Virus record (IMG/VR): IMGVR_UViG_2778261088_000006
Strand: one strand, 5' to 3'
DNA length: 27,160 nucleotides
Origin: a virus
Taxonomy: Duplodnaviria > Heunggongvirae > Uroviricota > Caudoviricetes
The notes under the pieces: generated by a model
What the model saw: the letters and a program-made list of their open reading frames with translations, nothing else
What the model was told of the DNA's origin: nothing
Database searches by the model: none
Shown here: positions 1 through 24,924 of the stretch, in pieces
Position numbering within the stretch: the stretch's first letter is position 1
How the letters are laid out: every line of letters begins with the position of its first letter
Position numbers and translations under genes: made by a program

Positions 1-77
1 GGTAAGCAGAGTTTTTGAAATGTAAGGCCTTTGAATAAGACAAAAGGCTGCCTCATCGCTAACTTTGCAACAGTGCC
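1..77 (+). mobile_element. IS26 right end (partial; element continues left of the window): 3' end of tnp26 plus 14-bp terminal inverted repeat
   Basis: Bases 2-25 encode ...VSRVFEM-stop, the C-terminus of the IS26 transposase as I recall it; bases 64-77 TTTGCAACAGTGCC are the reverse complement of the IS26 terminal IR GGCACTGTTGCAAA; the intervening bases also match my memory of the IS26 end. Not database-verified. Confidence 0.85.
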
Positions 78-185
78 ATCATAGATATTGTCCCGTTCGA
101 CACCTGCGGCGCGCAAGGCGTCGTGCTGCAGGTCGAGAGACTGCGAGCCATCGGCTTTGGAGACGCGGGCATATCCGATCAGCAT
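78..185 (-). pseudogene. tnpR: 5' fragment (36 codons) of a serine-recombinase resolvase gene, truncated by IS26
   Basis: Reverse complement from 185 reads ATG CTG ATC GGA TAT GCC CGC GTC TCC... = MLIGYARVSKADGSQSLDLQHDALRAAGVERDNIYD, a typical resolvase/invertase N-terminus with the catalytic-serine motif YARVS. The frame runs directly into the IS26 IR at 77. Divergent from tnpA as in Tn3-family elements. Confidence 0.7.
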
Positions 186-310
186 GTATCACAAACGTTG
201 GTTTGAGGCGGCGCTTCGGCCACGATTGCATTGACCTCTGGAAGTGTATCTCAACCAGCTTCATAAACAAAGCGTCTTGAACGCTATCAGATTTTGAAAA
301 AGGAACATGT
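186..310. promoter_or_regulatory. tnpR-tnpA divergent intergenic region, expected to hold the res site and divergent promoters
   Basis: 125-bp spacer between divergently oriented tnpR (start 185, minus) and tnpA (start 311, plus). Tn3-family elements with this layout place res here. Individual res subsites were not delimited. Confidence 0.4.
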
Positions 311-3196
311 ATGCCGCGTCGCGTCACTCTAACCGATCGGCAGAAAGACGCGCTGTTGCGCTTGCCGACTTCACAGACGGATTTGCTCAAGCACTATACG
401 CTGAGTGATGAAGACCTTGGGCATATCAGGCTGCGTCGGCGCGCTCACAACAGGTTCGGCTTCGCCCTGCAATTGTGTGTCCTGCGCTATCCCGGCCGGG
501 TGCTGGCTCCAGGCGAACTGATCCCTGCAGAGGTCATCGAATTTATCGGAGCGCAGCTTGGCCTGGGTGCCGACGATCTCGTAGACTATGCTGCCCGCGA
601 GGAAACACGGCACGAGCATCTTGCCGAGTTACGGGGGCTCTACGGCTTCCGCACCTTCTCCGGACGTGGTGCGAGCGAGCTGAAGGAATGGTTGTTCCGA
701 GAAGCCGAGATGGCGGTGTCGAACGAGGATATCGCCCGTCGCTTCGTAGCCGAGTGCCGACGCACCCGCACTGTCCTTCCCGCGACATCCACGATCGAGC
801 GGCTTTGTGCCGCGGCTCTCGTCGATGCCGAGCGACGCATCGAGACGAGGATCGCCAGTCGGCTGCCTATGTCGATCCGAGAACAGTTGCTGGCATTGCT
901 CGAGGAGACGGCTGATGATCGGGTGACCCGTTTTGTGTGGCTGCGCCAGTTCGAGCCTGGCTCGAACTCTTCGTCGGCCAACCGGCTGCTCGACCGGCTC
1001 GAATATCTGCAACGCATCGATCTCCCCGAGGATCTGCTTGCCGGCGTTCCTGCCCATCGGGTGACTCGTCTGCGCAGGCAGGGTGAACGGTATTATGCCG
1101 ACGGCATGCGCGATCTCCCGGAGGACAGGCGGCTTGCGATCTTGGCTGTTTGCGTCTCGGAATGGCAGGCGATGTTGGCCGACGCAGTGGTCGAAACCCA
1201 CGACCGGATCGTCGGCCGTCTCTACCGTGCTTCGGAGCGTATTTGCCATGCAAAGGTCGCAGACGAAGCGGGGGTGGTGCGTGACACCCTGAAATCCTTC
1301 GCCGAGATCGGGGGCGCCCTGGTCGATGCACAGGATGATGGCCAGCCGCTGGGCGATGTCATCGCGAGTGGGTCAGGGTGGGACGGCTTAAAAACCCTTG
1401 TTGCAATGGCAACCAGGCTGACCGCCACCATGGCCGACGATCCGCTCAATCATGTGCTCGACGGTTATCACCGCTTCCGCCGATACGCTCCACGCATGTT
1501 GCGCCTGCTCGATCTGCGAGCTGCGCCCGTTGCACTGCCGCTTCTGGAAGCGGTGACGGCCCTTCGTACCGGTTTGAACGATGCCGCGATGACCAGCTTC
1601 TTGCGGCCCAGCTCGAAATGGCATCGCCACCTTCGGGCCCAGAGGGCTGGCGACGCTCGCCTATGGGAGATCGCGGTGCTGTTCCATCTGCGCGATGCGT
1701 TCCGCTCCGGAGATGTCTGGCTTACTAGGTCCCGGCGCTATGGCGATCTGAAACACGCACTCGTTCCGGCACAATCCATCGCGGAAGGCGGTCGTCTCGC
1801 TGTGCCATTGCGGCCGGAGGAATGGCTGGCAGACCGGCAAGCTCGCCTCGACATGCGGTTGCGCGAGCTTGGCCGTGCCGCTCGCGCAGGCACGATCCCG
1901 GGCGGGTCGATTGAAAACGGCGTTCTGCATATCGAGAAACTCGAAGCCGCCGCGCCGACAGGCGCCGAAGATCTGGTGCTCGATCTCTACAAGCAGATCC
2001 CGCCCACGCGCATCACCGATCTCCTGCTGGAGGTGGATGCGGCGACCGGCTTCACCGAAGCGTTCACCCATCTGCGCACAGGAGCACCCTGCGCTGACCG
2101 GATCGGGCTAATGAACGTTATCTTGGCGGAAGGGATCAACCTCGGCTTGCGCAAAATGGCGGATGCGACAAACACCCACACCTTCTGGGAATTGATCCGC
2201 ATTGGACGGTGGCATGTCGAGGGCGAAGCCTATGACCGGGCGCTGGCCATGGTGGTCGAGGCACAGGCAGCGTTACCCATGGCCCGGTTCTGGGGCATGG
2301 GCACGTCGGCTTCGAGCGACGGACAGTTCTTCGTCGCTACAGAGCAAGGTGAGGCCATGAACCTGGTCAACGCGAAATATGGCAATACCCCGGGCCTGAA
2401 AGCCTATAGCCACGTCTCCGACCAATATGCGCCGTTCGCAACCCAGGTGATTCCTGCAACGGCAAGCGAAGCGCCTTACATCCTCGATGGCCTGCTGATG
2501 AACGATGCTGGACGCCATATCCGCGAGCAGTTCACCGACACGGGCGGCTTCACCGATCACGTCTTTGCCGCATGTGCCATTCTCGGCTACCGGTTCGCTC
2601 CGCGCATCCGCGACCTGCCATCCAAACGGCTCTACGCGTTCAATCCGTCGGCCGCCCCGGCGCACCTGCGAGCGTTGATCGGCGGAAAGGTCAACCAAGC
2701 CATGATCGAGCGCAATTGGCCCGACATCCTGCGCATCGCCGCCACCATTGCTGCCGGGACCGTCGCGCCAAGCCAGATTCTGCGGAAACTCGCCTCCTAT
2801 CCGCGGCAGAACGAGCTCGCGACAGCCCTGCGGGAAGTCGGTCGCGTCGAGCGCACCCTGTTCATGATCGACTGGATTCTGGATGCCGAACTCCAACGGC
2901 GTGCCCAGATCGGGCTCAACAAAGGCGAAGCTCATCATGCGCTGAAGCGGGCAATCAGCTTCCACCGCCGCGGTGAAATCCGCGACCGTTCCGCCGAAGG
3001 CCAGCATTACCGCATCGCCGGCATGAATCTGCTCGCCGCCATCATCATCTTCTGGAACACCATGAAGCTCGGCGAGGTCGTTGCAAACCAGAAACGCGAT
3101 GGAAAGCTGCTATCGCCCGATCTCTTGGCCCATGTTTCGCCGCTCGGATGGGAACACATCAATCTCACCGGAGAATATCGCTGGCCAAAGCCTTAG
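311..3196 (+). CDS. tnpA: Tn3-family transposase, 961 aa, apparently intact
   Basis: Uninterrupted 961-aa ORF in GC-rich DNA, N-terminus MPRRVTLTDRQKDALLRLP, size and composition typical of Tn3-family TnpA. ATG at 311 follows an AAGGA ribosome-binding site. The stop codon lies inside the terminal IR, as is usual in this family. Many opposite-strand ORFs here are GC artefacts. Confidence 0.9.
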   Translation: MPRRVTLTDRQKDALLRLPTSQTDLLKHYTLSDEDLGHIRLRRRAHNRFGFALQLCVLRYPGRVLAPGELIPAEVIEFIGAQLGLGADDLVDYAAREETRHEHLAELRGLYGFRTFSGRGASELKEWLFREAEMAVSNEDIARRFVAECRRTRTVLPATSTIERLCAAALVDAERRIETRIASRLPMSIREQLLALLEETADDRVTRFVWLRQFEPGSNSSSANRLLDRLEYLQRIDLPEDLLAGVPAHRVTRLRRQGERYYADGMRDLPEDRRLAILAVCVSEWQAMLADAVVETHDRIVGRLYRASERICHAKVADEAGVVRDTLKSFAEIGGALVDAQDDGQPLGDVIASGSGWDGLKTLVAMATRLTATMADDPLNHVLDGYHRFRRYAPRMLRLLDLRAAPVALPLLEAVTALRTGLNDAAMTSFLRPSSKWHRHLRAQRAGDARLWEIAVLFHLRDAFRSGDVWLTRSRRYGDLKHALVPAQSIAEGGRLAVPLRPEEWLADRQARLDMRLRELGRAARAGTIPGGSIENGVLHIEKLEAAAPTGAEDLVLDLYKQIPPTRITDLLLEVDAATGFTEAFTHLRTGAPCADRIGLMNVILAEGINLGLRKMADATNTHTFWELIRIGRWHVEGEAYDRALAMVVEAQAALPMARFWGMGTSASSDGQFFVATEQGEAMNLVNAKYGNTPGLKAYSHVSDQYAPFATQVIPATASEAPYILDGLLMNDAGRHIREQFTDTGGFTDHVFAACAILGYRFAPRIRDLPSKRLYAFNPSAAPAHLRALIGGKVNQAMIERNWPDILRIAATIAAGTVAPSQILRKLASYPRQNELATALREVGRVERTLFMIDWILDAELQRRAQIGLNKGEAHHALKRAISFHRRGEIRDRSAEGQHYRIAGMNLLAAIIIFWNTMKLGEVVANQKRDGKLLSPDLLAHVSPLGWEHINLTGEYRWPKP

Positions 3197-3229
3197 CGTA
3201 GGATTCCGCCCCCTCCCGCAAACGACCCC
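3192..3229. repeat. 38-bp Tn3-family terminal inverted repeat (right end of transposon)
   Basis: Reverse complement of 3192-3229 is GGGGTCGTTTGCGGGAGGGGGCGGAATCCTACGCTAAG: outer GGGG and inner ACGCTAAG are the conserved ends of Tn3-family 38-bp IRs. GC-rich sequence stops and AT-rich DNA begins just beyond 3229. The partner IR is not in the window. Confidence 0.55.
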
Positions 3230-3564
3230 AGAAAGCAATCAAGTTACCGCGCAAGGAATCCGGCAAATACATTCTCCACCAAAGCATCTTCGATTCCGAA
3301 CACGATAAAAAAGGCGATGAATTTTTCAACATCAACTGGAGCGAAATAACGACAGAGCATGTTCTGACGTTACTATGTTGCTTTGCGACGGAATACAACA
3401 ACGTTGCCAGCGGCGACTACATCAGGGCAATGGCTGGAGAAGTTGAGGACCGCCAAGAACCATCGTTACTAAGTCCACTGATTAACATAATTCTGGGCAC
3501 CCAGATACTGGAACAAAAAAAAGTGCCGAAAGGGGTATTAACAGGCAAGCATAATTATTTTTAA
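3230..3564 (+). pseudogene. 3' remnant (about 111 codons, no start codon) of a gene interrupted by the transposon insertion
   Basis: Frame beginning at 3230 is open to TAA at 3562-3564 in AT-rich DNA where stops are otherwise frequent; it has no plausible start and begins exactly at the transposon IR. Translation ...GDEFFNINWSEITTEHVLTLLCCFATEYNNVASGDYIRAMAGEVEDRQEPSLLSPLINIILGTQILEQKKVPKGVLTGKHNYF. Same strand as the downstream RelA/SpoT gene. Product not recognised. Confidence 0.35.
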
Positions 3565-3657
3565 CAATTATATGCAGTAATTTTGTGGTTATATTCTCCA
3601 TTGATTTTCTAACCGCTTTATCATTAGATGTAACAGCATGTAAATCATTTAAAATGG

Positions 3658-4794
3658 ATGAAAGCAATGGGGAATGAAGTTTATCAAAGTCAAAAATGCA
3701 AGTTGAAATATTCAAAATCTCAAATTGATAGGGCTGCTCAATTGATAAGGCACGGGTGTAGTGACGAAGAAAGGCAGCAAGCTATTGAAATGATACAAAA
3801 TTTCCGTGAGCTGCATCTTTATCCATTAATGCTCATGAAAAATCATTTAGCAAGAGCAGCTGCTAAGGTTGACAAAGACAAAAAGATTCTCGTTGCAAGA
3901 AGACTTAAGCGACTTTCTACCATAATAGATAAACTAGAGCGTCCTAGTCTTGATGGAGGCAGAACTAGCAATGCAATTAAATTAACACGGATGCAGGACG
4001 TTGGCGGATGTAGGGCCATTGTCAGAAACTTAGACCAGTTGATACAGCTAAAGGAACGTCTTTTAAAAAGCAAATCTGTTCATAGGATTGTTAAAGAGTA
4101 TGATTATCTTACTCCCAAAGACAGCGGCTATAGTGGAATCCACCTTGCATACAGTTGCTTCGATCAGAAAGAGGAGCAATATCCGTGGCGAAAAACAAAG
4201 ATTGAGATACAGTTAAGAACTCAATTGCAGCATGCTTGGGCTACTAGCCTTGAAATAATTGATACCCTTGAAGGTATCAAGCTGAAAACTTCAAGTGAAG
4301 GGCATCCAGAATGGAGACGATTTTTCTATCTAGCCGGATGTCTTGTAGCGCACGACGAAAAAGCCTGCACTCTTGATGAGCTAGTTGTATCTCAGTATGA
4401 AGGCGAGCTTAAAGAGCTGGAACGGACTTTATCTGTACGGAGGAAACTAAGCACATACACCCTCGCCTTAAATTTAACTTCTGACGCGAATTTGATTAAG
4501 AAGTTGCCAAAAAATCATAAGGGGCATTACTTAGTAACAATGAGAAATGCAGAAAACAAGCCCAATACAAAAAACAAAAAAATGTTCCTAGTGTCTGTTC
4601 GCGCATTTAAAACAAAAGAAGCAGATGAAGCCCTTGAGGCCTTAAATAAAGACGATTCTGATCCTAATGTATTGATATCTGTTCTCGTTGCTACAGATAA
4701 CATTAAGTCACTAAAAAAAGCCTACCCCAACTATTTTGGCTCAACAAACCAGTTTACAAAATTCTTAGATAAGCATCTTCGTAACGAAGGATAG
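3658..4794 (+). CDS. RelA/SpoT-domain nucleotidyltransferase with C-terminal extension; candidate fused toxSAS (CapRel-like) defence protein
   Basis: 378-aa ORF with the RelA/SpoT synthetase motifs in order: RLKRLSTIIDKLER (aa 81-94), DVGGCRAIV (114-122), KDSGYSGIHL (154-163), EIQLRTQLQHAWA (183-195). About 180 residues follow the catalytic core. An alternative start ATG lies at 3667. Confidence 0.8.
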   Translation: MKAMGNEVYQSQKCKLKYSKSQIDRAAQLIRHGCSDEERQQAIEMIQNFRELHLYPLMLMKNHLARAAAKVDKDKKILVARRLKRLSTIIDKLERPSLDGGRTSNAIKLTRMQDVGGCRAIVRNLDQLIQLKERLLKSKSVHRIVKEYDYLTPKDSGYSGIHLAYSCFDQKEEQYPWRKTKIEIQLRTQLQHAWATSLEIIDTLEGIKLKTSSEGHPEWRRFFYLAGCLVAHDEKACTLDELVVSQYEGELKELERTLSVRRKLSTYTLALNLTSDANLIKKLPKNHKGHYLVTMRNAENKPNTKNKKMFLVSVRAFKTKEADEALEALNKDDSDPNVLISVLVATDNIKSLKKAYPNYFGSTNQFTKFLDKHLRNEG

Positions 4795-4800
4795 TTGCTT

Positions 4801-4829
4801 AATTTTGCCCGGTAATTCCGGGCAAAATT
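4801..4829. terminator. Perfect hairpin between convergent genes; probable bidirectional terminator
   Basis: AATTTTGCCCGG-TAATT-CCGGGCAAAATT: 12-bp perfect stem with 5-nt loop, 7 nt after the RelA/SpoT stop and immediately after the stop of the minus-strand gene at 4831. Confidence 0.45.
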
Positions 4830-4830
4830 G

Positions 4831-5079
4831 TCAATCTGCATTCAGGAGCAATGCGTTATCTATGATGATCTGCTCCCATTCTTCGAATGCCCGGTCGCGG
4901 ACGCCCTGGGGAACGCTGTTAGTTTTGAAATCGACGACCGTACGCCATTTCCCGTCCGGACGGTACATGCGCAGAGCTTTACTTCCCCCTTCCCTGCGCA
5001 CCTCAACGTTATGCTTGTCAGCAAACTCTTGTAATGCTCGTAGCGTCCCATGCTTTACTGTGTAGTATCGCTTTTTCAA
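4831..5079 (-). CDS. lxc: Small protein, 82 aa; position matches P1 Lxc
   Basis: ORF overlapping the upstream ulx-like gene by 4 nt (ATGA) and lying downstream of darB on the same strand, the order I recall for P1 (lxc, ulx, darB). Symbol assigned by synteny only. Confidence 0.55.
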   Translation of the reverse strand: MKKRYYTVKHGTLRALQEFADKHNVEVRREGGSKALRMYRPDGKWRTVVDFKTNSVPQGVRDRAFEEWEQIIIDNALLLNAD

Positions 5080-5516
5080 GTTTTCTCTCCAGCCTGTGCC
5101 AAGGCTTCAACTTCCAAATCGTAAGACTCAAACTCATAGTCCTGGTCGTCAACCTCTTCAGGCACTGGCAGTAAATGCCAGGCTGAGTATATCTGACCAT
5201 TATCAAAACGCTCCTGGCTGTAGAGCGTCGCGGCTATGAGCGTCAGCGCCGGACGGTCATAACGGTAAATTTTGCGAACGTCACGGTCAACGAGACGACC
5301 GAAATTACCATAACCGCGCTCCAGTAATAATTTTTTAATTTCCGGCCAGTATGGACCATAGCTGCGGTACAGGCGGGGATTTTTCAGTAATCGCCCGCGT
5401 AGCCCTGACAGGAAGAAATCAACGTATTCGTCTTCTGTCTTTCCTAACAACGCTGTACGGAGTACCGCCTCAAGATATGTTTTATTCGGTTTTATTGTAT
5501 CAGATAGTGTGGCCAT
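5076..5516 (-). CDS. ulx: 146-aa protein; position matches P1 Ulx
   Basis: ORF immediately downstream of darB on the minus strand (darB stop 5550, this start 5516). Symbol assigned by synteny only. Confidence 0.55.
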   Translation of the reverse strand: MATLSDTIKPNKTYLEAVLRTALLGKTEDEYVDFFLSGLRGRLLKNPRLYRSYGPYWPEIKKLLLERGYGNFGRLVDRDVRKIYRYDRPALTLIAATLYSQERFDNGQIYSAWHLLPVPEEVDDQDYEFESYDLEVEALAQAGEKT

Positions 5517-5549
5517 ATTATGCGACGCCCGGCGAACCGGGCGCTCCTG

Positions 5550-8500
5550 TTATGCGTATTGTTGGATGACGGCCAGAACGTCCGCCACGTTGTGTTTTGT
5601 CTCGATAATCCACCAGTTACCCGGGAAATCGCTGTTCTTCGCCTTCGCTGGCAGCCAGCGAGCGCCGAATTTCGCCTTGATTGCGTCTTTCGCACGGAAA
5701 AGAACGCCTTTCATGCCTGAGGCTTCCTGAAGCCCAAATACCTCGCCAGCGGCGAATTTTGGTGCGTACATCATCTTCAGGTCGGCGGTGGATACGCGAT
5801 AATTCAGACCAAGAGACTGAGCTATGCTGGTGGCATCACCCTGTATTGATGATAACTCTTCTTGTTTCTCGTTTCTGGCGGCAATCTCTTCCTCCGTGAT
5901 GTTGCCAAGGGCCAGGTTTATCCGATCAGCGTCGGCCTGTTTCTCTTCATCGGTGCGCCCGGCAAGAACCGTGTTAATTCTCTGCAATATCTCCACATGA
6001 TTCTTGCGCATGCTGAGCAATTCCGGCGTAACCTCGTTAAGATCCACCAGCCCAAGGATGGCAAGGTCGGAAAACATTGATACCAGGTTGTAGGTCATGC
6101 GATAGCTGAGTTGACCATAGGCTGATGGCAACTGCACCGCATCCATTTTATAGGCATCCATAAATTTAGAGCCGTCGTTTACGACATCCGCAATTGCCGG
6201 TGTGATTTTTCCTGTGGTGGCGGCCTCCCTGATTGCTGTTACCCACGATTGAGTCAGCGCGGAAACTGCATGATTCAGATTGGCTTTGCGTTCTGCTGCA
6301 ATGCGCGCGCTTGCAGCGTCCATTGACTGTTTGATCTCGTCTTTATTGCTGTAAATGCCAATGGTGCCAAACTGTGCTGTGGTGATCTCATAATCTGACG
6401 CCCGGAACTCATTGGTACCGAAAATGGCATTGGTGACTTCAAGTTCAGAATCCCCGTTACGAGTAGCCCCCTGGCTTGTTTTTTCCGGCATTCTGGCGAT
6501 CGCATCCGCTATTTTCTCCTGAATTGCTTCAGGGGATAGCGTATCTCCGTATGACGCGATTACATCGCCATAATTGGAGCCAAACAGTTCAACCAGGAAT
6601 GTTTCTGCCGAACGGATCTGGCGGTTATTCCCTTCCGACATCATACCAAGCACCCATTTTGCAATTGACGACTTCAGCGCGCCGTCACGGCGATCCGGGT
6701 AAACCGCATGCTTCAGTGGGTCCGTATAGGTACCAACAAAATCGATGCTATAGCCTGACTCTGTAGTCTGAACGCCGTATGAGTCAGTGATTTTGATCAT
6801 GCCGCGCTGCTGGAAACGGTAGAAATCGTCACAGGAAATGATGTCGTTAATCCCGGCGATGGAGACGCCACCACTGATTTTCTGCATAACAGCATCTTCA
6901 TCGGGAGTTACATCCACCTGTTTATCCAGCGTCTTCACATCCCAGTTACCCGATTTGGTGCCTCTTAAGGTAAAGATGATCTCCACGTCTGCGCGCTGGC
7001 TGTCGAAGTCCAACGACTTAATGCGAACGATATCACCGGCACAATCGTAGTATTGGCCTACACGCCATGAGCGATCGCCGATAACAAGGAACTCATTCGC
7101 ATGGTTAACCAGATCAGGATCAACATCCAGAATGCCTTTATTTATTGCATCCTCCACCAGCGGGCGCAGGCGTTTGATATCCGTCGCGGCCTTCTGAGTA
7201 CGGTTCAATAATTTCTCATAGCGGGAGATGGCCTGAGAGATATTAGCCTTGCGCTGAATGGCGCTTTTCAACGACGCGCGATACTGTGCTAACAACGTAC
7301 GGTCTGTGTGATGGACGCTACCCCAGCGGGCTTTCCAGTCTGCGTTATCAGCTGCTTTGGCCATTACCGCCTGTTTGAATTTAGCTACCTCGGCGGTGGT
7401 CTTTTCAAGTTCCGCTTTGCTTCGCTTTAATTCAGCGGTAAGTACCTCCACATCCTCGCCAGCTGCGTGCTGCGCCTTGATGTAATTCTGAAGGTCGATA
7501 GTAGCCTGTTCTTTCTGGCGAGCGCGTTTCGCAGCTTTCGCCTTATCCATTTGAACCTGCATCATTGCCAGACGTTCGCCGTCATCCTTCGCGGTATACA
7601 TCTGCATTTCGATCATGTCATTGGCGTCGGCGTTCTCCATTTCCGACTTATCTGAACGGAGGATATCGGAGATCCAGCCTGCTTTACGCTTCAGCGTCTT
7701 CAATCGGTATTCATCGAAAGACCCCTTGCCGCAGTAGTAGTGAACGCGAACGCTTGCACGGTTGGAGCCAACTCGAGCACCGCGACCGTTACGCTGTGCG
7801 ATACTGGCTGGTGTCCATGGCAACGTCAGATGATGGATGTCAGTCGTTCCTCGATGCAGGTTGATACCCACCTCTGCCTTTTTGTTGCAGATGATGATCG
7901 GAGTCCGGCCCTCCTGGAAGTCGGCTGCAATCTTTTCCAGACCGCCCAACGACATTTCATTCTGCTGCGCGATATAGGCGTCATACAGAGCCATTTGCTC
8001 GTTGTATTTCGCTATCTGTGCATCTGTTGGTTCATCCGGTAACTCTTTCGGCGGTTTAACCGCTTTCAGTTTCTTACCGGTTTTACCTGCCTCGGCAACC
8101 GTCTGAGCATTCAGGATCCCCACCTTTGAAGGTTCAAGGTTAAGAGCATTGCAGATAATGCGCTTGAGCTTCTGGTGCTGCGTTTTTTCGTCCGTGAAGA
8201 TGATTTGCTTACCTTCCGGGAAAAACTCCTTCAGCGTGGCGATCAGCTTCACGTATTTGGGCGTAACGGGGTGAGTTACAGTCTGTTCGTCAATGCCAAA
8301 CTTGGCCAAGCGCTTATTCACTTCCTGCTCGAACGCTTCCGGAACCTGCAACTGAATAAACTCGCCCTTATCTATCAGGGAGTATTGCGATTGCTGCGTG
8401 ATTGAATCATCACTGTCGTCGTCTTCGCTGGTGGCTTGTTTGGGCAAACTGTCCGCCAGCTGCTGCACCGCATCGGCGTACTCCGGCAGGAAACGATAGG

Positions 8501-11500
8501 TGATCCGGCGATAGTACAGGTCCATGTCAGTACATACGCGGTCCATATCCCTGATTATTGAGAAGATCGGACGGGCTTTCTCGTGCTCAATCACTCCGTC
8601 TTCATCGACCGAGGTCGTTACGCCATTGTTGGCTTTGGCCGCCGCTTCCGCCTGCTGACGCAATTCTTCATACGCCGCCAGTTGTTCTTCAGTAAGTGGT
8701 GCATCCTGCTGGTGTTCGTCCAGCTCCGGGATCTCCACGGTATCCTTAACGTCTTCCGCCGTTTTAAGCGTTGTCCAGCGATGGAATATGCCGCGCAGCG
8801 CATCAAGGTTTTCAAAGCCCACCAGCGCCATTTTTTCTTCAACTTCACCGCTGATTTTCTGTACCGTTTCCAGCCTGGTCTTGCCGAAGAATTTAACGAA
8901 GTCATCAGGACCGTAGATCCCCATCTTCTGCCAGTATTCCTTCGGCAGAACATGAGAAAGCATGTTGTATGCATCGATCGGGGTGTTAACGACTGGCGTT
9001 GCAGTCAGGAGAACCGGTCCACGCCCACCATTCTTTTTCATCAGGTACGCGTTTTTGATTGCCATATCTCGCGCCGATTGCGCCACCGCGCTGGTGGGCA
9101 GATAGGCCAGCTGTGACGCTTCGCGACCATTTTTATAGCTATTGCGGTAGTTGTGGCCTTCGTCAGCAATCACGCTGTCGAAGCCCATATCCTCAAAGTA
9201 CGGATACTTCTCTGCTTTTTCGGTACCGGTATCTGAATACTCCGACAATACCCGGCGACGCGCCGCCTCTTTGCGATGGGAATCGGAGTCCATTGCGCTG
9301 GCCACACGCCCGGCAGCAACGAAGTCATAAAGCATGTCTTGTGCATGCTCATCTACGGTGTCATCACGTAGCGGAATGCGGGCGTATTGTTCTTTGGTAA
9401 ACACGACTGCACGGTAGTTTGAGTGCGGGATCGCGTTCATCCGCGCCGTGATAGTGGCTTCATCTGCCAGCTTAAGGGCATCGCGCATAACGGGAGTGCC
9501 ATCTGCACCAACGACAGGTTTACCGTTCTCATCGAGCACCGGCACCTGGCGAATCTGATCGCCATCCATCAGCACATCAAGACCGACGAACAGGTAGTTA
9601 CTGAATGCCTCTTCACTCAGAAACTCTTTTGCTTCGTAATACCAGTTTTCCAGCACTGATTTAGGCACTACATACGCAGTACGGGTGGAACGACCGTTCT
9701 CATAGTTGAACGCCTCAAGCGCCAGCGCGGTCGTGGTTTTACCCAGCCCGGTACCGAAGCCCAGGATGCCGCGCCCATCTTCGGACAGTCGGCGCACCTC
9801 GCTATTCTGGTAATCAAATGGCTGTCGCTTACCGCTTAATCCCTTCAACCCAAGCGGATCGCCAGAGTGTTCATACGGGATATTGCTATTGAAAACATCG
9901 TTGTATTTGGCAACCAGCTCATCGTAGCGATCGTGCGTCTTGATCCACTTATTGAACTGGTCCTCAAGCAGTGCCATCTGCTCGCGGTAGCCGTTCGCCG
10001 TCGCGCTATCTTTGCCACCGATACGCGCACCATTGAGATACTTTTCCAGCTGTGCCGGGAACCCGGTCGCGTTTTCACCTGATTTACGGTCCCACTCGTA
10101 GCGGATCTCGCCTGTTTCTTTATCCTTGCGCTGGACGACACCGTATCGGTGCCCGACGAACAGACCATCACCACCGTGATAGGTGTCAGAAACCATTTCG
10201 TCGCCTTCCAGCTGCACTGACTGCACATAGCGCAGATCCGGATAGCCGTTTTCCTGCAAAAACTCCAGAATGACGGAGCGGTCGAACCAACGGCTATTGA
10301 GCTTAAAGCGGATATTCTCTGCTGGCGTCTTGATGCGCTTCTCTTCGATCGCTGCCAGCTGATTAAGGACGTTGTTCTTTACTGGACCGTCGGGGAGTGT
10401 GGCAAGGAATTCCTGTTTTGGAGCCACTATCTCGTTAATGTCGCCGCTGGTGGCGCGGGCGAACGGAACAATCCCGCCATACGGTGAAACCGCAATACCA
10501 GGGGTGCTGGCCAATAAATTAAGCAACTCTTCATCACTGGCTGGCAGTTCGCCGGTAAACGCAAGGCGGAAATCATCGAGCTGGATTGGATCGCGGGTAA
10601 GATCGCTATAGAGATAACGCAGGGTGTCCTGATAGCTGGTGGAGTCATAACTGGCGCTGGAATCATGCGTAACCAGCTTTCCTGCCAGCTCGTCAGAAAT
10701 AGTGCCATCCAGCTTAATTGCACCACGGAAAGCAAACCAGGAGCGCGCACCGCTTCCCGATAATTTAGCTATCGGACCGCGACCGGGGTTACCAAAACGG
10801 TCAATCTCTGCCTGCAAACGGGACACCAGAGAAAGGCGCTGTTGTTCGATTTGTTCAGCACTATGCCCGGCGGCCTTCATGTCCTGATATTCAATTAACA
10901 TCCGGCCAATCATCGCCCCGCGATACAAGCGTTCACGGTATTTTTCAGGCTGGCTGTTAATCCAGTCCACCAGCTGCACCATATCGTCGCTGATTGATGT
11001 GGTGTACTTATCGCGGACATTTGCCATCTGGGTAAATGTCATGCCGAGACGGCCTTCTGTTGTAGTCAGGTTACGCTGAAGAGCCTCCCAGCTATCCGCG
11101 CCATAACTGGCAGCATCGATCTTAAGTTCCTTCCCGGCATCAGCTTCAATCCAGCGACCACCAGCATATTTTTGCCATACGCCATTAATCAGGCGCATTT
11201 CCCCTTCACCAACAACGTCTGCGGTCGGTGACGGTTCAGCCATATCGAGCAAAGACCAGTCGATACGGCTTTCGAAACGATGAATCAGCTTCGCTTTAAG
11301 AGACTGGTTATCAATCTGACCGTCGGCACGAACCTCAATACGCCCCTGGAAGCCCTTTTCCTGGGTGCCATGAACAAACCGGCGGCCATCCTTTTCAAAC
11401 CACTTGCCAGAAATAAACGTTGGCCAAAGCACATTTGCCGATTCAAGAGTGCTTTCATCCACCAGGGGGATTTTCTCAGCCATCTCTGCCGGATGTTTGC

Positions 11501-12317
11501 GCATCAGCACCACATCTACGACCGTACTGGTCCCGTTTGCGTCAAAAGTACCGGTAGGCAGGCGGTGGGCACCAAGAAATTCAGCTTTCCGTGATAGGCG
11601 CAGGCGTAACCGCTTCATGTTTGAACCTGAAACAATGGACGGCGGCACAATCACACACATGAATCCGCCAGGCTTTATCTTGTCCAGCATGCGGAGCATG
11701 AAGTAAGAACCCATGTCCGTTTCTTCTGCGTAAGGCTTATCGATGTTGCGTGTGTTATCACGACCACCGAACGGAACGTTACCCACAACATGGTCGAATG
11801 AATCGTTAGGCGTGCTTACAGCCAGTTGTTCGAACGGGGAAATCTGTACGCTGTCTTCCGGATGTAACAGCTGGTTTATACGACCGGAAACACTGCTGAT
11901 CTCAGTCGCGGTCATCACCGTACCAACCGGTTTTGTCTCATTAAAAACGCCGGTGCCCGCCGATGGTTCCAGAGTGTTACCTACGTCCGCGCCATAGAGC
12001 TTCATGATCTCCCAGACGCCTTCAGCAATAGGCTTTGGTGTGTAATATTCGGAGACGGACCCGCCAATGCCGCCTTCACCAGTGTACCCGGCCAGGATCT
12101 GGCGCTGTTCATCTGTCAGTGTCGCGCCGTCCACCAGCGAATTAAGCAAATCTATCGCCTTCTGATTCGCCTCCCGGCGCAGTCGGTCATAGCTTTTGCC
12201 TTCCACCTTTTCCACGCCGTATTTAATCGGCGCTCGGTGAGATGTTATTGCCCTAATGTATTTCAATATTTCGCTGACACTTGAACAGCGAAACACCCCC
12301 ATAGATAGCTTGTTCAT
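5550..12317 (-). CDS. darB: Giant 2255-aa methyltransferase-helicase fusion; P1 DarB-like antirestriction protein
   Basis: Single 6.8-kb ORF. N-terminal N6-adenine methyltransferase motifs (LEPSAGTGVF SAM-binding, VVGNVPFGG catalytic). Central SF2 helicase motifs (GFGTGLGKTT Walker A, VIADEGHNYRN DExH box, LLTATPVVN motif III, QRNGRGAR motif VI). Length and architecture match P1 DarB as I recall it; portal, protease, lyz and ssb follow in the P1 order. Confidence 0.88.
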   Translation of the reverse strand: MNKLSMGVFRCSSVSEILKYIRAITSHRAPIKYGVEKVEGKSYDRLRREANQKAIDLLNSLVDGATLTDEQRQILAGYTGEGGIGGSVSEYYTPKPIAEGVWEIMKLYGADVGNTLEPSAGTGVFNETKPVGTVMTATEISSVSGRINQLLHPEDSVQISPFEQLAVSTPNDSFDHVVGNVPFGGRDNTRNIDKPYAEETDMGSYFMLRMLDKIKPGGFMCVIVPPSIVSGSNMKRLRLRLSRKAEFLGAHRLPTGTFDANGTSTVVDVVLMRKHPAEMAEKIPLVDESTLESANVLWPTFISGKWFEKDGRRFVHGTQEKGFQGRIEVRADGQIDNQSLKAKLIHRFESRIDWSLLDMAEPSPTADVVGEGEMRLINGVWQKYAGGRWIEADAGKELKIDAASYGADSWEALQRNLTTTEGRLGMTFTQMANVRDKYTTSISDDMVQLVDWINSQPEKYRERLYRGAMIGRMLIEYQDMKAAGHSAEQIEQQRLSLVSRLQAEIDRFGNPGRGPIAKLSGSGARSWFAFRGAIKLDGTISDELAGKLVTHDSSASYDSTSYQDTLRYLYSDLTRDPIQLDDFRLAFTGELPASDEELLNLLASTPGIAVSPYGGIVPFARATSGDINEIVAPKQEFLATLPDGPVKNNVLNQLAAIEEKRIKTPAENIRFKLNSRWFDRSVILEFLQENGYPDLRYVQSVQLEGDEMVSDTYHGGDGLFVGHRYGVVQRKDKETGEIRYEWDRKSGENATGFPAQLEKYLNGARIGGKDSATANGYREQMALLEDQFNKWIKTHDRYDELVAKYNDVFNSNIPYEHSGDPLGLKGLSGKRQPFDYQNSEVRRLSEDGRGILGFGTGLGKTTTALALEAFNYENGRSTRTAYVVPKSVLENWYYEAKEFLSEEAFSNYLFVGLDVLMDGDQIRQVPVLDENGKPVVGADGTPVMRDALKLADEATITARMNAIPHSNYRAVVFTKEQYARIPLRDDTVDEHAQDMLYDFVAAGRVASAMDSDSHRKEAARRRVLSEYSDTGTEKAEKYPYFEDMGFDSVIADEGHNYRNSYKNGREASQLAYLPTSAVAQSARDMAIKNAYLMKKNGGRGPVLLTATPVVNTPIDAYNMLSHVLPKEYWQKMGIYGPDDFVKFFGKTRLETVQKISGEVEEKMALVGFENLDALRGIFHRWTTLKTAEDVKDTVEIPELDEHQQDAPLTEEQLAAYEELRQQAEAAAKANNGVTTSVDEDGVIEHEKARPIFSIIRDMDRVCTDMDLYYRRITYRFLPEYADAVQQLADSLPKQATSEDDDSDDSITQQSQYSLIDKGEFIQLQVPEAFEQEVNKRLAKFGIDEQTVTHPVTPKYVKLIATLKEFFPEGKQIIFTDEKTQHQKLKRIICNALNLEPSKVGILNAQTVAEAGKTGKKLKAVKPPKELPDEPTDAQIAKYNEQMALYDAYIAQQNEMSLGGLEKIAADFQEGRTPIIICNKKAEVGINLHRGTTDIHHLTLPWTPASIAQRNGRGARVGSNRASVRVHYYCGKGSFDEYRLKTLKRKAGWISDILRSDKSEMENADANDMIEMQMYTAKDDGERLAMMQVQMDKAKAAKRARQKEQATIDLQNYIKAQHAAGEDVEVLTAELKRSKAELEKTTAEVAKFKQAVMAKAADNADWKARWGSVHHTDRTLLAQYRASLKSAIQRKANISQAISRYEKLLNRTQKAATDIKRLRPLVEDAINKGILDVDPDLVNHANEFLVIGDRSWRVGQYYDCAGDIVRIKSLDFDSQRADVEIIFTLRGTKSGNWDVKTLDKQVDVTPDEDAVMQKISGGVSIAGINDIISCDDFYRFQQRGMIKITDSYGVQTTESGYSIDFVGTYTDPLKHAVYPDRRDGALKSSIAKWVLGMMSEGNNRQIRSAETFLVELFGSNYGDVIASYGDTLSPEAIQEKIADAIARMPEKTSQGATRNGDSELEVTNAIFGTNEFRASDYEITTAQFGTIGIYSNKDEIKQSMDAASARIAAERKANLNHAVSALTQSWVTAIREAATTGKITPAIADVVNDGSKFMDAYKMDAVQLPSAYGQLSYRMTYNLVSMFSDLAILGLVDLNEVTPELLSMRKNHVEILQRINTVLAGRTDEEKQADADRINLALGNITEEEIAARNEKQEELSSIQGDATSIAQSLGLNYRVSTADLKMMYAPKFAAGEVFGLQEASGMKGVLFRAKDAIKAKFGARWLPAKAKNSDFPGNWWIIETKHNVADVLAVIQQYA

Positions 12318-12369: not shown

Positions 12370-15114
<2,745 letters not shown>

Positions 15115-18733: not shown

Positions 18734-19040
18734 AATATATGATCTGGTCTATATGATCACCAAAATCATCGTCGTCGTCCTCATCACCACCATCTACTGC
18801 TGGCCAATCAACAAACCAGCCAGCGTAAAGATGCAGCGTTCGGAGAACATCACTTGCGGGAGCATCAAGGGTGTTAACGAATCCCATATAGCTATTGGGA
18901 TTTGCTCCAGCTATGGCTTCAGCGATCATGTCCTCGGTAATGTCACCGGAGATAATGCTTAAACGCCCGGAAACTTCTTCATTATCATCAAATTCGATAA
19001 TGGCATCTCCGCCTAATGGCGCTGCGATTTTAATCTGCAT
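18732..19040 (-). CDS. Small acidic protein (102 aa), last gene of the darA-type operon
   Basis: Overlaps the ddrB-like stop by 11 nt; strongly acidic C-terminal part (VDGGDEDDDDDFGDHIDQIIY). Function unknown. Confidence 0.5.
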   Translation of the reverse strand: MQIKIAAPLGGDAIIEFDDNEEVSGRLSIISGDITEDMIAEAIAGANPNSYMGFVNTLDAPASDVLRTLHLYAGWFVDWPAVDGGDEDDDDDFGDHIDQIIY

Positions 19041-22017
19041 TATTTAGCTCCTTTGCCACACCTAATAACAGTTCCAGCAATCCGTCACCATTCATCAGTG
19101 ATGCGGCAGCGGCCTCTTTGTCATGATACAACTGAAGAGCCATAGAGAATACTTCCGTTGCTGACGTTTTGGAAATAGTCGGTGATTTCTGCCGAATTTT
19201 CCCTGAGTTACTCACTGAGACTGGCGGGTATACCTTCGCCATATAAATATTACTCAATCGAGATCTGAAGCACCATTCAGGCTTGCCACGCCCACCGATA
19301 TTGACGAATGATGGCTTATCCCCTTCAACATTGGCCTTCAGGAATGACCGGGCTTTCTCTAACAAACCAGGGTTACTGTACTCAAGATGATGACCCAGCT
19401 CGTGCCACAGTGCACTTGCATTTTCATCGTTCAAATTGACAGCAACAACACCATTTAGATTTGCATATGCCCTTCCCTGGTGGTGAATCACCTTTGATAA
19501 GGTCGATATTTTCCCGCCGGTCAGGCGATAAATATCAGCAAGTTCCTTGCGCAGGTCTATCCCACCATTCTGTCCAGCGCGGGCTTCTTCCACTTCTTCC
19601 GTGATAAAAGAGTCGGCCCACTCAAGAGCTTTTTCTTCAGATACGGATGAGTTGGCGATCGCACTGTTCATGGCAGATAACACTTTCTCGTGGACCGAAC
19701 CCATACTTCGCTGATTCATTTGCCAGCGTGTCTGCGGGTTATATGAGAATCGCTTAAGTAGTTGGTCAAGCTGCTCAAGTTCTTCTTCACTGACATACTT
19801 TTTAGCCTCACCAATAATGCCAGGGAGAATATTGCCGTTAGGATTAAACGCTCGCGAAAGGAAGAGTTTCAGCGCCCCCATGCCCTCCGATGCTTCAATA
19901 TCACCAATAACCCGGTTAACAATGGCCGCACTCTTCGGATTAGCATCCGCCAACGCTCTGGCTACGATTTGCAGGGACGATACGACCTCACGCTGCATAT
20001 CAGTCCTGATCTCATCAATAAACTCTGGCGTTATGCCGTGCTCTTGAAGGATATCCCGGCCTTCCGCCGTTACCCCATCGATATCACCGACATGTTTATT
20101 AACACGACTTTGCAATGCCTTAAATGCCTTCAGAATTCCACGGGCATCATCCGCTTTACTAACGGCCTTCCTGAATGCTGGCAAGAAGTCTGAGTTAACC
20201 TCATTTTGTTGATCGGCCCACTGAATGGAGGCTTCTTTCATCTCGTCCAGAGTCAGATCACCCAACGCGGTATGGTCTGTGAATATGAGCGACAACCTCT
20301 GAACCATTTCTGCCAATGGTGATGCCGAATGCGCCGCGCTAAGGAATGCTTTCACCCTGGTTGGGCGAATGGAAAACCAGTCAATAGCTGGTGGCATATC
20401 TCCGTTTTTTATCGCCTGCGCTATCTCGTCAAAGCCATCGCGCCCAAGGGAGGATGCGTGATTTAACAAGCCGCGAAGTAACGAATTGCTGATACCGAAT
20501 AATCGGCACCATTTTTTCACGTCGGCAACAGGCATTCGAACAAAATGCGCAAGCACTTGTACAAGCTGTTCATCCTGGGGATCTGTACGGGAAAGCAGCC
20601 TGATCAGATGAATAATGTCTTTGATGCCGGATGCCCGATGTAATAGCAAACTGGTATATGGAGCAACACCATTGTAACTACCGCCGGAAACGGACTCGAA
20701 AAGACCGCCGGATATCCCTTGCATGCCTTCGTTTTCCAGTTCCTGAGACACCTGGCGAAGGATATCCTGTAACGACACATCACCACCGCCAAACATATCC
20801 CCCAGCGCCTGGCCCTGGTGCTGTAACTCATCATTGATACGTTGAGCCATCAACTTAAAGGCGGTGGCCATACGCTTCGCGCTACGGTTATTCGCGACGA
20901 TGAACAACGCGAGTGCTTTCACTTCCGGGGCCGTTTCGCTGAACATATCCCCCTGAGCAATAACATCGGTAATATGCTGGCCTGACTCCTTCGATTGCCT
21001 TACCAGGTCTACCGCATCTTTCAATGCCGCCAGCGCCTTTTTATCGAGGCTATCCGCTGTCTCAATGCCATCAACAATAGTTGTCACAGCCTGCTTGTGC
21101 GCTTCTCCTGATAAAGCCTGCATCTGGACAAAATCATTGGCTGCCGCATTAAGCGCCGTCAGAACATTACGCATATCCGGATCAGGTTCTTCTGCAACCA
21201 TCCTTACCAGGCGCGCATCCTTATATGCCTTGGCAAAGATCGCGTTTTGTATACGGTCAACAAGTTGCCGCGTTGGTCGCCCATCTTCCGTTACAAGGCC
21301 AGCCGCCTGTGTGGCACCAACTTGCGTCATAAATCCGCGAATAAACGCGTCATTACTGCGGCTAAGCAGATCTCCGCTTTCTGACGGGTTAAAAAGCGCC
21401 ATCATCGCCGGTGTTATGCTGTCGGCATCAACAAAAGCCTTTTCACTGGCTGCCATTTCCTGAAGATCAGAAATATTTGAGTCCTTGGCAAACTGAACGC
21501 GGTCAACCTTGGTTAACCGGCGGCGCACCAGTACCGGAGCCGTCATTGATTCAACCTTTTCAGGTCGTATGCCGAATTCGGTCGCATGATCAATCAGGTA
21601 CTCACGATACCGATCCGCATTGCCGTCCTGATAGGCTTTGATGATCCCCATGGTCCGTCCATTACCTGACTCAACGGCATTGTCCTCACCAATTATCGGC
21701 GCACCATGGCTGGATAAACCGGAATCAGTAAGCTGAGCAGGCCGCAAATCTTTGGATATCTGGTTAACCTGAAGAAGGCTGGATGCGCGGGTCCGGTCGC
21801 GCGGCTGAAGTTCCTGGGGATAGTCAGGATTAATTTTCCCATCCAGAGTATTGGATACCAAAAGAGCTGAGGCATCGACGATATCAAACGCTGTTTTTAC
21901 CTCGTCTCCCTTCGCTGTCACCACATACGAAACCCGCCCATAACCGGGCAGGTTCTTTAGCAGCTCGATCAGCGTTTCTATGCTGGTGGCCATTACCACC
22001 TGATCGCTTAAGCTCAT
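19030..22017 (-). CDS. ddrB: Large protein of the darA operon (995 aa), P1 DdrB-like
   Basis: Large ORF downstream of darA-like and ddrA-like genes on the same strand; size agrees with my recollection of P1 DdrB (about 108 kDa). Assigned by synteny and size. Confidence 0.7.
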   Translation of the reverse strand: MSLSDQVVMATSIETLIELLKNLPGYGRVSYVVTAKGDEVKTAFDIVDASALLVSNTLDGKINPDYPQELQPRDRTRASSLLQVNQISKDLRPAQLTDSGLSSHGAPIIGEDNAVESGNGRTMGIIKAYQDGNADRYREYLIDHATEFGIRPEKVESMTAPVLVRRRLTKVDRVQFAKDSNISDLQEMAASEKAFVDADSITPAMMALFNPSESGDLLSRSNDAFIRGFMTQVGATQAAGLVTEDGRPTRQLVDRIQNAIFAKAYKDARLVRMVAEEPDPDMRNVLTALNAAANDFVQMQALSGEAHKQAVTTIVDGIETADSLDKKALAALKDAVDLVRQSKESGQHITDVIAQGDMFSETAPEVKALALFIVANNRSAKRMATAFKLMAQRINDELQHQGQALGDMFGGGDVSLQDILRQVSQELENEGMQGISGGLFESVSGGSYNGVAPYTSLLLHRASGIKDIIHLIRLLSRTDPQDEQLVQVLAHFVRMPVADVKKWCRLFGISNSLLRGLLNHASSLGRDGFDEIAQAIKNGDMPPAIDWFSIRPTRVKAFLSAAHSASPLAEMVQRLSLIFTDHTALGDLTLDEMKEASIQWADQQNEVNSDFLPAFRKAVSKADDARGILKAFKALQSRVNKHVGDIDGVTAEGRDILQEHGITPEFIDEIRTDMQREVVSSLQIVARALADANPKSAAIVNRVIGDIEASEGMGALKLFLSRAFNPNGNILPGIIGEAKKYVSEEELEQLDQLLKRFSYNPQTRWQMNQRSMGSVHEKVLSAMNSAIANSSVSEEKALEWADSFITEEVEEARAGQNGGIDLRKELADIYRLTGGKISTLSKVIHHQGRAYANLNGVVAVNLNDENASALWHELGHHLEYSNPGLLEKARSFLKANVEGDKPSFVNIGGRGKPEWCFRSRLSNIYMAKVYPPVSVSNSGKIRQKSPTISKTSATEVFSMALQLYHDKEAAAASLMNGDGLLELLLGVAKELNNAD

Positions 22018-22029
22018 CCCTGTTACGCC

Positions 22030-22395
22030 TTATGCTGCCTCTTTAATGTTGGCGGCTATCCATGCCGCCGTGTGCTGTTTAACCTGGTCCAGGTCGATGT
22101 ATGTGCCAACATATTGACTCAAATCCTGCAAGGTACCGATAAATGCATCGGTGCTCTGATCGACGAATTTATCAGCCAGGAAATCAGCAACCAGTTTTGG
22201 CACACCATCATGTACCGAAGGTTGTTTTTCCTCGCCACTACTGCCGCCGGACACACCGTACCCCATCTGTTGCATGATCTGGTCAATTTCATCGCTGATA
22301 TCCAGCAACTCCATGCCACTCGCGGTAGCCGCTTTGGACATCAAAGCATCCAACTTATCGCTGAGATCCATTAACTCAATAGCTGATAGTGTCAT
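22030..22395 (-). CDS. ddrA: Small protein (121 aa), P1 DdrA-like
   Basis: ORF between darA-like and ddrB-like genes, overlapping the darA stop by 4 nt. Assigned by synteny. Confidence 0.55.
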   Translation of the reverse strand: MTLSAIELMDLSDKLDALMSKAATASGMELLDISDEIDQIMQQMGYGVSGGSSGEEKQPSVHDGVPKLVADFLADKFVDQSTDAFIGTLQDLSQYVGTYIDLDQVKQHTAAWIAANIKEAA

Positions 22396-24312: not shown

Positions 24313-24924
24313 TTAATTTCCTGCTTTCAGTTGCTTAAGACGGCGTTTGAGTTCGCCATTTCGGGCCTTTTCGTTATTGAGTCGGCCTGTCTCCTTATCC
24401 AGCTTCGCCCGCAAATCAGTGATCTGCTGTTGATTGAAAGACACCGAGTTCTGCGCTGATTTATAAGCGGCAACCACCTGAGCATTCCGCTGTTTTGCCT
24501 CTTGCAGGCGCTGAAAGTTGGATTTTACTGCCGGTTTCTTGTCTACCGGATTGGCAACACGTTTCGCTTTGGCGATCAGTGATTTCTGGAATTTTGCGGA
24601 GTTTTTGCGGGCCGCTTGCCCCATGACGGTACCAAGCGTCTTGATATCCGGCGACTGAGCGTTAGGAATAGCTTTTCCATTCAGCCTCACAGACGATATA
24701 TCGCCAGTATCGTTTACCTGTATGGCAAGAATTTGTCCGTCGTTAAGAACCAGCTTTGCGGTTTTAACTTTAACGCCATCTTTCGTTGTTGCGCGGTTGC
24801 TGGAGTCAACCTCAATTACCGTAACACCGGTTTTATTGATCGCCGCGATAAGGGATTTCAGCCCCTTTTCATTAACCTGGTCAAAATCGACCGTTGCATA
24901 CTTATTTTTCGTCATCTGACACAT
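24313..24924 (-). CDS. hdf: Protein immediately upstream of darA (203 aa), P1 Hdf-like
   Basis: Stop lies 1 nt before the darA start. Lys-rich with a C-terminal coiled coil. Assigned by synteny. Confidence 0.6.
   Translation of the reverse strand: MCQMTKNKYATVDFDQVNEKGLKSLIAAINKTGVTVIEVDSSNRATTKDGVKVKTAKLVLNDGQILAIQVNDTGDISSVRLNGKAIPNAQSPDIKTLGTVMGQAARKNSAKFQKSLIAKAKRVANPVDKKPAVKSNFQRLQEAKQRNAQVVAAYKSAQNSVSFNQQQITDLRAKLDKETGRLNNEKARNGELKRRLKQLKAGN

Follow-up and report, generated by a model that had tools for sequence, protein, structure and literature searches.

A divergent allele in the mat–lxc slot of a P1-like phage-plasmid, probably encoding a CapRel-family fused toxin–antitoxin

The window analysed here, a 27,160-nucleotide stretch from IMG/VR virus record IMGVR_UViG_2778261088_000006, is P1-like phage-plasmid sequence. 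Its left end is occupied by the end of a Tn3-family transposon, which is followed by the 3′ remnant of a mat gene, by a gene encoding a RelA/SpoT-domain protein and by lxc, ulx and darB, and the gene order mat–CapRel–lxc–ulx–darB is the same in Salmonella phage SJ46. Two further ORFs have no Pfam match and were named prt-like and pro-like by collinearity with P1, from their position relative to darB. The principal features are as follows (+, the strand as given; −, the opposite strand).

1..3229, +, end of a Tn3-family transposon, with tnpA at 311..3196 and the terminal inverted repeat ending at 3229
3230..3563, +, 3′ remnant of mat, its last ~110 codons (334 nt; 87.7 % identical to P1 mat and 96–98 % to SJ46 mat)
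3564..3666, +, AT-rich intergenic leader from the mat stop to the CapRel start, about 62–82 % identical to the SJ46 leader
3667..4794, +, putative CapRel-family fused toxSAS toxin–antitoxin gene (375 aa plus stop; the alternative ATG at 3658 gives 378 aa)
4831..5079, −, lxc, convergent with CapRel (95–100 % identical to SJ46 and ~98 % to P1)
5076..5516, −, ulx, also convergent with CapRel (95–100 % identical to SJ46 and ~98 % to P1)
5550..12317, −, darB, encoding 2,255 aa
12393..14102, prt-like ORF
14065..15114, pro-like ORF
elsewhere in the window, lysozyme, ssb, ddrB, darA and a Cin-like invertase, from Pfam matches

Positions 1–3229 are 100 % identical, exactly up to 3229, to a Tn3-family transposase/IS26 region that thousands of resistance plasmids share; the terminal repeat is one that we take to resemble that of Tn5393. 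Since the transposon identity ends at 3229 and mat sequence starts at 3230, the transposon inserted into mat, as a later event and as a bystander unrelated to CapRel. The mat remnant is an open frame up to its stop codon at about 3561–3563, and in plasmid pE148-2, for which we checked the annotation, a full-length mat gene lies upstream of CapRel. The first-pass annotation of this DNA, which was made from the letters alone, had described the RelA/SpoT-domain gene as apparently acquired cargo in a sharply AT-rich island between transposon DNA and the phage backbone. The island is evident in the base composition, with 38 mol% G+C in the CapRel cassette (3566–4830) compared with 49–52 mol% in the P1 backbone and 61 mol% in the transposon, but the mat remnant separates the gene from the transposon, and the cargo is better described as an allelic cassette in a conserved slot. 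Carriage of CapRel by the transposon itself was considered and rejected, since the transposon identity stops at 3229, mat follows, and dozens of P1-like plasmids carry the same allele, with all of 3300–5600 covered at ~99 % identity.

The sharp limits of this cassette are seen when the window is compared with SJ46 in sliding 100 nt windows. Nucleotide identity is 96–98 % in mat (3225–3424) and 95–100 % from position 4825 on, but only 53–83 % across 3425–4824. In the reference P1 genome the mat–lxc interval contains the EcoPI res/mod genes together with IS5, and since P1 carries EcoPI res/mod where SJ46 and the window carry CapRel, we conclude that the interval is an exchangeable defence slot. 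The near-identical flanks, taken with the saturated synonymous sites and low pN described below, indicate that the window and SJ46 CapRel genes are old alleles that have been swapped as a cassette and kept under purifying selection.

The gene itself is intact. A six-frame ORF list gives an unbroken 378-aa ORF with an ATG start at 3658..4794 (+), although the ATG at 3658 is followed three codons later by another in the same frame, at 3667. Both in SJ46 and in the NCBI proteins for the window allele the annotated start is this second ATG, which yields a 375-aa product, and position 3667 is the more likely start; residue numbers in this paper refer to the 375-aa protein and are the same as those of CapRelSJ46 up to residue ~300. 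The translation of 3658..4794 contains all four of the motifs that had been quoted at first pass, RLKRLSTIIDKLER, DVGGCRAIV, KDSGYSGIHL and EIQLRTQLQHAWA, and the Pfam RelA_SpoT model (PF04607) matches residues 82–196 of the 378-aa ORF with an E-value of 2.8e-12 and a score of 47.4 bits, for which the gathering score is 27 bits. The call of an intact RelA/SpoT-domain gene is thus sound, and the HMM search that had been proposed as a check on it gives a significant result. The same annotation had counted about 180 residues of C-terminal extension, and about that number do follow the Pfam match, but the sensor/antitoxin part proper comprises the last ~100–120 residues, while the stretch between it and the Pfam match is still to be counted with the conserved toxin domain and the anchors (PMC9712102). 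The neighbours of CapRel are the mat remnant upstream and the convergent lxc gene 36 nt downstream, and there is no separate antitoxin gene beside it, in that no co-oriented small ORF with a family match is present among these neighbours.

Within the gene the following elements can be placed, by Pfam match and mapping onto CapRelSJ46 for the toxin domain and from AlphaFold2 secondary structure and alignment for the C-terminal part; the roles of the three toxin-domain residues are those given in PMC9712102.

3901..4245, +, core RelA/SpoT nucleotidyltransferase (toxSYNTH) domain (PF04607)
3901–3903, +, R79 of the toxSYNTH domain, ATP-coordinating
4012–4014, +, R116 of the toxSYNTH domain
4129–4131, +, Y155 of the toxSYNTH domain, in the G-loop
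4435..4791, +, predicted antitoxin/sensor region at the C-terminus, in which a pseudo-zinc-finger domain is accompanied by anchor helices and a C-terminal helix
4723..4734, +, putative YXXY auto-inhibition motif Y353-P-N-Y356, within the conserved block KSLKKAYPNYFGST and aligned with Y352 and Y355 of CapRelSJ46

When all PDB chain sequences were searched with the ORF, 7ZTB and 9ERV were matched with E-values of 5e-186 and 3e-185 in one stretch covering ORF residues 4–374, and the alignment to 7ZTB extends to its residue 370 of 373. The single-gene PADLOC candidate PDC-S33 also matches the protein over its full length (E=4.2e-86); since a literature search found no papers on PDC-S33, the HMM match is the sole link between that candidate and CapRel. 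Aligned globally, the window protein and the SJ46 CapRel product (locus L001) match end to end with 74.3 % identity, which is distributed unevenly, with 77.6 % identity over residues 1–272, 65.3 % over residues 273–373 and a minimum of 9 of 20 positions at residues 301–320. Whether the gene is a known CapRel allele or a divergent one had been left undecided at first pass, with alignment to the SJ46 protein suggested as the means of deciding, and because identity is 74.3 % overall and 65 % in the C-terminal domain, the gene is a divergent allele, distinct from that of SJ46.

The divergence has spared all of the residues to which experiments on CapRelSJ46 assign a role (Zhang et al., 2022; PMC9712102): A77, R79, R116, Y155, L280, L307, V338, L339, A341, A351, Y352 and Y355 are all conserved between the two proteins. 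In CapRelSJ46 the Y155A substitution abolishes defence, Y352A and Y355A render the protein constitutively toxic, as does substitution of the interface residues A77, V338, L339, A341 and A351, and activation by the SECphi27 capsid protein requires L280 and L307 (PMC9712102). Six CapRelSJ46 residues have been named as contacts with Gp54 of phage Bas11 (PMC11578894), and five of these are conserved (L270, D273, N275, L276 and K278), the exception being S279, which is replaced by lysine. In an alignment of 50 homologues R79, R116 and Y155 are invariant, as are A352, Y353, P354 and N355 of the YXXY block, and Y356 is at least 90 % conserved. The gene product is thus a full-length CapRelSJ46 homologue that keeps the mapped residues and occupies the same mat–lxc slot, which agrees with the fused toxSAS (CapRel-like) layout proposed at first pass. 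We therefore consider it highly probable that the gene encodes a CapRel-family fused toxin–antitoxin defence protein of a P1-like phage-plasmid, for which an auto-inhibited tRNA pyrophosphokinase mechanism would follow by homology.

An AlphaFold2 model, built from the alignment of 50 homologues, has a mean pLDDT of 85.3 and a pTM of 0.85. After the alpha/beta toxin domain it predicts helices at residues 238–255, 257–271 and 274–278, followed by strands at 286–294 and 307–315, a helix at 316–331 and a strand at 335–342 (approximately nucleotides 4522–4692); distal to this last strand the YXXY motif lies among short helices, and a final helix spans 361–371. The cysteine-less pseudo-zinc-finger domain of CapRel is described as an antiparallel sheet of three strands in which a helix lies between beta7 and beta8, flanked by anchors and a C-terminal helical extension (PMC9712102), and the predicted strand–strand–helix–strand region of the window protein matches this topology; it also lacks cysteine, none being present after residue 235. 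A Foldseek search of the model against the PDB ranks 9ERV and 7ZTB first (E ~1e-40, ~360 aligned columns, TM 0.69–0.75, rmsd ~10 Å), under the labels ‘Salmonella CapRel bound to Bas11 Gp54’ and ‘Salmonella tRNA pyrophosphokinase CapRel’. It has been noted that AlphaFold predicts a closed state of CapRel whereas the crystal is open (Zhang et al.), and an rmsd of ~10 Å despite a TM of ~0.7 against the open crystals would fit a different orientation of the domains, an observation that is suggestive and falls short of proof.

A protein search recovered 3,550 relatives at E≤1e-5. In the alignment of 50 homologues the mean column entropy is 1.09 bits in the toxin domain and 1.98 bits in the C-terminal region, where the family varies more than anywhere else; values of 1.9–2.6 bits are reached at residues ~240–345, with a fall to 0.55 bits in the block KSLKKAYPNYFGST. 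This pattern matches what has been published for the family, in which effector and auto-inhibitory plug are conserved and the sensor evolves fast.

Some database records name the product a ‘GTP pyrophosphokinase’, and it has a weak likeness to small alarmone synthetase (SAS) enzymes, seen in a match to the NCBIfam model GTPPhKinYjbM (E=6.6e-9), in PDB matches to RelP and RelQ that cover only the catalytic core (E=1e-8 to 1e-4) and in SAS fold matches with TM ~0.35 and 20–25 % identity. These similarities raise the alternative of a housekeeping SAS of the RelQ/RelP/YjbM type, making (p)ppGpp and bearing a C-terminal extension that is a conserved regulatory tail. However, the score against the YjbM equivalog model is 35.8 bits with a cut-off of 320 bits, the matches to CapRel are far stronger, and the full-length protein shares 74 % identity with a characterized tRNA-pyrophosphorylating toxin. 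An SAS-only architecture spans ~200–250 aa, whereas the window protein has 375 aa with an extra sensor domain, and its gene sits in a phage-plasmid defence slot that few E. coli strains carry in this form, with 1.5 % of the complete genomes having the gene. The first-pass annotation had itself raised the prospect that the C-terminal region is just a conserved part of a housekeeping SAS, but this region is where the family varies most, and no conserved tail is seen. We have rejected the housekeeping reading, which we regard as improbable in the extreme. Within the defence proteins the chemistry has also to be considered, since toxSAS enzymes include both tRNA pyrophosphorylation and the synthesis of (pp)pApp with depletion of ATP (PMC9712102, PMC11782079), the latter being the activity of FaRel/Tas1-like proteins. 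Such an activity here seems highly unlikely, given that the toxin domain shares 78 % identity with its counterpart in CapRelSJ46, a tRNA pyrophosphorylator in vitro, and that the entire CapRel subfamily is described as translation-inhibiting (both PMC9712102).

It may also be asked whether the gene, as a CapRel member, is silent or decaying in the element studied here. CapRel starts 430 nt downstream of the transposon end, and the mat promoters have been removed, so that read-through transcription from mat into CapRel is lost. A consensus promoter and terminator scan of positions 3400–5000 found no promoter-like site within the leader at 3564..3666; its sole promoter-like site lies at 3482–3509, inside the mat remnant, and as one site was found where 3.3 are expected by chance the count is uninformative. 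Moreover, some other copies of the allele are broken: that of pE148-2 has an ISKpn26 insertion, and that of phage vB_EcoM-673R5 has lost single nucleotides from A-runs at two places, from which it follows that the gene is dispensable to the element. Against silencing or decay are the intact ORF, which is amino-acid identical to the commonest form of the allele, the complete intergenic leader between mat and CapRel, and the finding that plasmid-borne CapRel homologues function when expressed from their native promoters (PMC9712102). The leader presumably contains CapRel's own promoter and ribosome-binding site, and we think it very unlikely that the copy in the window is silent or decaying.

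For the preferred reading, that of an active CapRel-family defence protein, a mechanism can be proposed by homology to CapRelSJ46 and CapRelEbc (PMC9712102, PMC11578894, PMC13423816). The free N-terminal toxSYNTH domain would act as a pyrophosphokinase, transferring pyrophosphate from ATP to the 3′-CCA ends of tRNAs and so switching translation off. In an uninfected cell the C-terminal pseudo-zinc-finger domain would fold onto the toxin domain, with the YXXY motif plugging the adenine pocket between R79 and R116, and the enzyme would be auto-inhibited. Upon infection a phage protein would bind the variable C-terminal domain and keep the enzyme open; translation would then stop and the infected cell would abort the infection, by which the clonal population and the resident phage-plasmid would be protected. 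It is for CapRelSJ46 only that pyrophosphorylation of tRNA 3′-CCA ends, and the rescue of N-terminal fragment toxicity by the C-terminal fragment, have been described (PMC9712102), and we infer tRNA pyrophosphorylation, auto-inhibition and abortive infection for the window protein from its homology to the SJ46 and Ebc proteins.

Comparison of the two alleles at the nucleotide level gives a pS of ~0.85 and a pN of 0.17 overall, and purifying selection on CapRel is evident. A dN/dS ratio relative to SJ46 is not usable because synonymous sites are saturated (pS 0.83–0.99), and pN alone can be compared between regions: it is 0.13 in the toxin part and about twice that, 0.245, in residues 231–345. 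The changes include an almost wholesale replacement of the beta6–beta7 loop (residues 296–305; I296E, T297N, G300T, D302N, T303K, G304K, K305M and one additional residue), five substitutions in helix alpha10 and differences at 8 of the last 11 residues; two further changes, K277I and S279K, lie in or beside anchor-1. In CapRelSJ46, hydrogen–deuterium exchange and mutagenesis link the loop, alpha10 and the C-terminal helix to binding of the capsid protein (PMC9712102). Because the altered sensor regions are those tied to capsid-protein binding in SJ46, it is plausible that the window allele has a different phage range. With the loop, alpha10 and C-terminal helix largely replaced and the catalytic and auto-inhibition machinery intact, we consider it an even chance that the trigger differs from both known activators of CapRelSJ46, of which one is Bas11 Gp54 and the other the major capsid protein of SECphi27-type phages; it could then be a new phage protein or a phage–host complex of the kind that activates CapRelEbc.

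The allele is common in E. coli and well represented in the databases. The exact 375-aa protein is present on 276 contigs in NCBI (e.g. EAZ1177198.1, ‘RelA/SpoT domain-containing protein’) and is the commonest amino-acid form of its allele; its 90 % cluster has 313 members, every named one of which is from E. coli, and no other protein cluster exceeds 78 % identity. Among 5,426 complete E. coli genomes, 83 (1.5 %) contain the gene at ≥99 % nucleotide identity, with 83 of its places on plasmids and four on the chromosome. In PLSDB the protein is encoded by 52 plasmids (≥95 % amino-acid identity), and a further 22 carry a 60–80 % relative, which among the matches listed is the SJ46 type, at 74.7 %. 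When the GTDB species genomes were scanned with this one protein as query, three loci only were obtained, in Kluyvera (70 %), an Erwinia MAG (67 %) and an Enterobacter sp. (43 %), and this single-protein scan did not recover CapRelEbc or CapRelKp. It has been reported that E. coli P1-like elements commonly carry CapRel or dGTPase systems (2025 phage-plasmid preprint, bioRxiv 10.1101/2025.09.12.675607). In the literature that we searched, no paper characterizing the window allele was found; the characterized homologues found there are CapRelSJ46, CapRelEbc and CapRelKp (PMC9712102, PMC11578894, PMC13423816). The gene is thus a catalogued member of a known family, for which both the mechanism and the occurrence in E. 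coli P1-like elements are already published.

The find is in itself an ordinary one, and the main value of the window allele is as a natural sensor-domain variant for studies of specificity. A second, anciently diverged CapRel allele in the slot of the best-studied one constitutes a natural experiment on the evolution of sensor specificity in a bacterial protein akin to pattern-recognition receptors, and if the trigger does differ, the two alleles alternating in the P1 slot would form a natural pair for mapping how the pseudo-zinc-finger sensor is retargeted. The CapRel alleles, EcoPI and others also mark an exchangeable defence slot in a clinically widespread, resistance-carrying lineage of phage-plasmids.

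The closest known system is CapRelSJ46 of Salmonella phage SJ46 (PDB 7ZTB and 9ERV; Zhang et al., 2022, 2024), which has the same single-ORF architecture (373 aa, compared with 375 aa for the window protein) and shares with it the catalytic, YXXY, interface and hinge residues, the predicted topology of the pseudo-zinc-finger domain and the genomic slot. The two differ by 96 substitutions and a one-residue insertion, and in their sensor surfaces. CapRelEbc of Enterobacter chengduensis and CapRelKp of Klebsiella pneumoniae are likewise fused CapRels with the same mechanism, in which the variable C-terminal domain sets specificity (PMC9712102, PMC13423816). The SJ46 and Ebc proteins are 70 % identical overall and 47 % identical in the C-terminal domain (PMC9712102, PMC13423816), a divergence comparable to that between SJ46 and the window allele. 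CapRelEbc and CapRelKp have other triggers, that of CapRelEbc being T7 Gp0.4 in complex with host FtsZ (PMC13423816), which illustrates how far CapRel specificity can shift. Because the protein search found no cluster more than 78 % identical other than the E. coli one, it is very unlikely that the window allele is the same as either of these. Further removed are PhRel/ATphRel of mycobacteriophage Phrann and FaRel2/ATfaRel2, which resemble CapRel in combining a tRNA-pyrophosphorylating RelA/SpoT-type toxin with a protein antitoxin in a prophage-carried defence system (PMC9712102, PMC11782079); both are bicistronic, however, whereas toxin and antitoxin of the window protein form one polypeptide. 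The EcoPI type III restriction–modification res/mod genes of P1 share with the window gene the mat–lxc slot and a role as anti-phage cargo, although their proteins and mechanism are unrelated to those of CapRel.

Within the mat-lxc slot, identity of the window to Salmonella phage SJ46 falls to 53-83 % (window 3425-4824), vs 96-100 % in the flanks (3225-3424 and 4825-5600), and the change is sharp at the cassette edges. These breakpoints, together with synonymous sites that are saturated between the window and SJ46 cassettes, show that the slot behaves as a defence cassette exchanged by recombination. The features in and beside it, and in the remainder of the window, are as follows.

Window 1-3229: Tn3-family transposon end, with tnpA at 311..3196 and the inverted repeat ending at 3229
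Window 3230-3563: mat remnant (last ~110 codons)
Window 3482-3715 (-): antisense ORF of 77 aa, overlapping the CapRel leader and start
Within window 19030-24924: ddrB (ddrB-ParB domain) and darA (DarA_N/DarA_C domains)
Window 24313..24924: second DarA_N-like ORF
Window 26445-27026 (-): serine recombinase (Resolvase and HTH_7 domains), close to the window end
SJ46 31-3375: Tn3-family transposon (Tn1721 tnpR/tnpA), compared with window 311-3196
Plasmid pE148-2 (NZ_AP024520.1) 2868-5195: CapRel gene split by ISKpn26
Phage vB_EcoM-673R5 4367-5466: CapRel split into two annotated CDS by two single-base deletions in A-runs

The P1 gene mat is interrupted in the window by the transposon end, to which all but its 3′ portion has been lost, and maturation control in this element may be impaired through the disruption. 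The transposon end is IS26-associated in other plasmids, and its junction with mat is absent from the plasmids of PLSDB, where no record covers at least 80 % of window 1-5000. In SJ46 the Tn1721 genes lie directly upstream of mat, near that phage's own CapRel; the two P1-like elements appear to have acquired their transposons by independent insertions, in both cases beside this defence slot. The 77-aa antisense ORF is most likely a chance ORF within AT-rich DNA.

The CapRel allele of the window is inactivated in some other records, as listed for pE148-2 and vB_EcoM-673R5; the deletions in the latter could be either real frameshifts or sequencing errors.

The P1 anti-restriction (Dar) set is complete around CapRel (window 5076-12317 and 19030-24924), comprising ulx, darB (2,255 aa), ddrB, darA and the second DarA_N-like ORF, such that anti-defence genes adjoin a defence gene. 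The serine recombinase is probably the Cin-type invertase that operates the tail-fibre switch of P1. P1 itself differs at the mat-lxc position, carrying EcoPI res/mod and IS5 where the window has CapRel.
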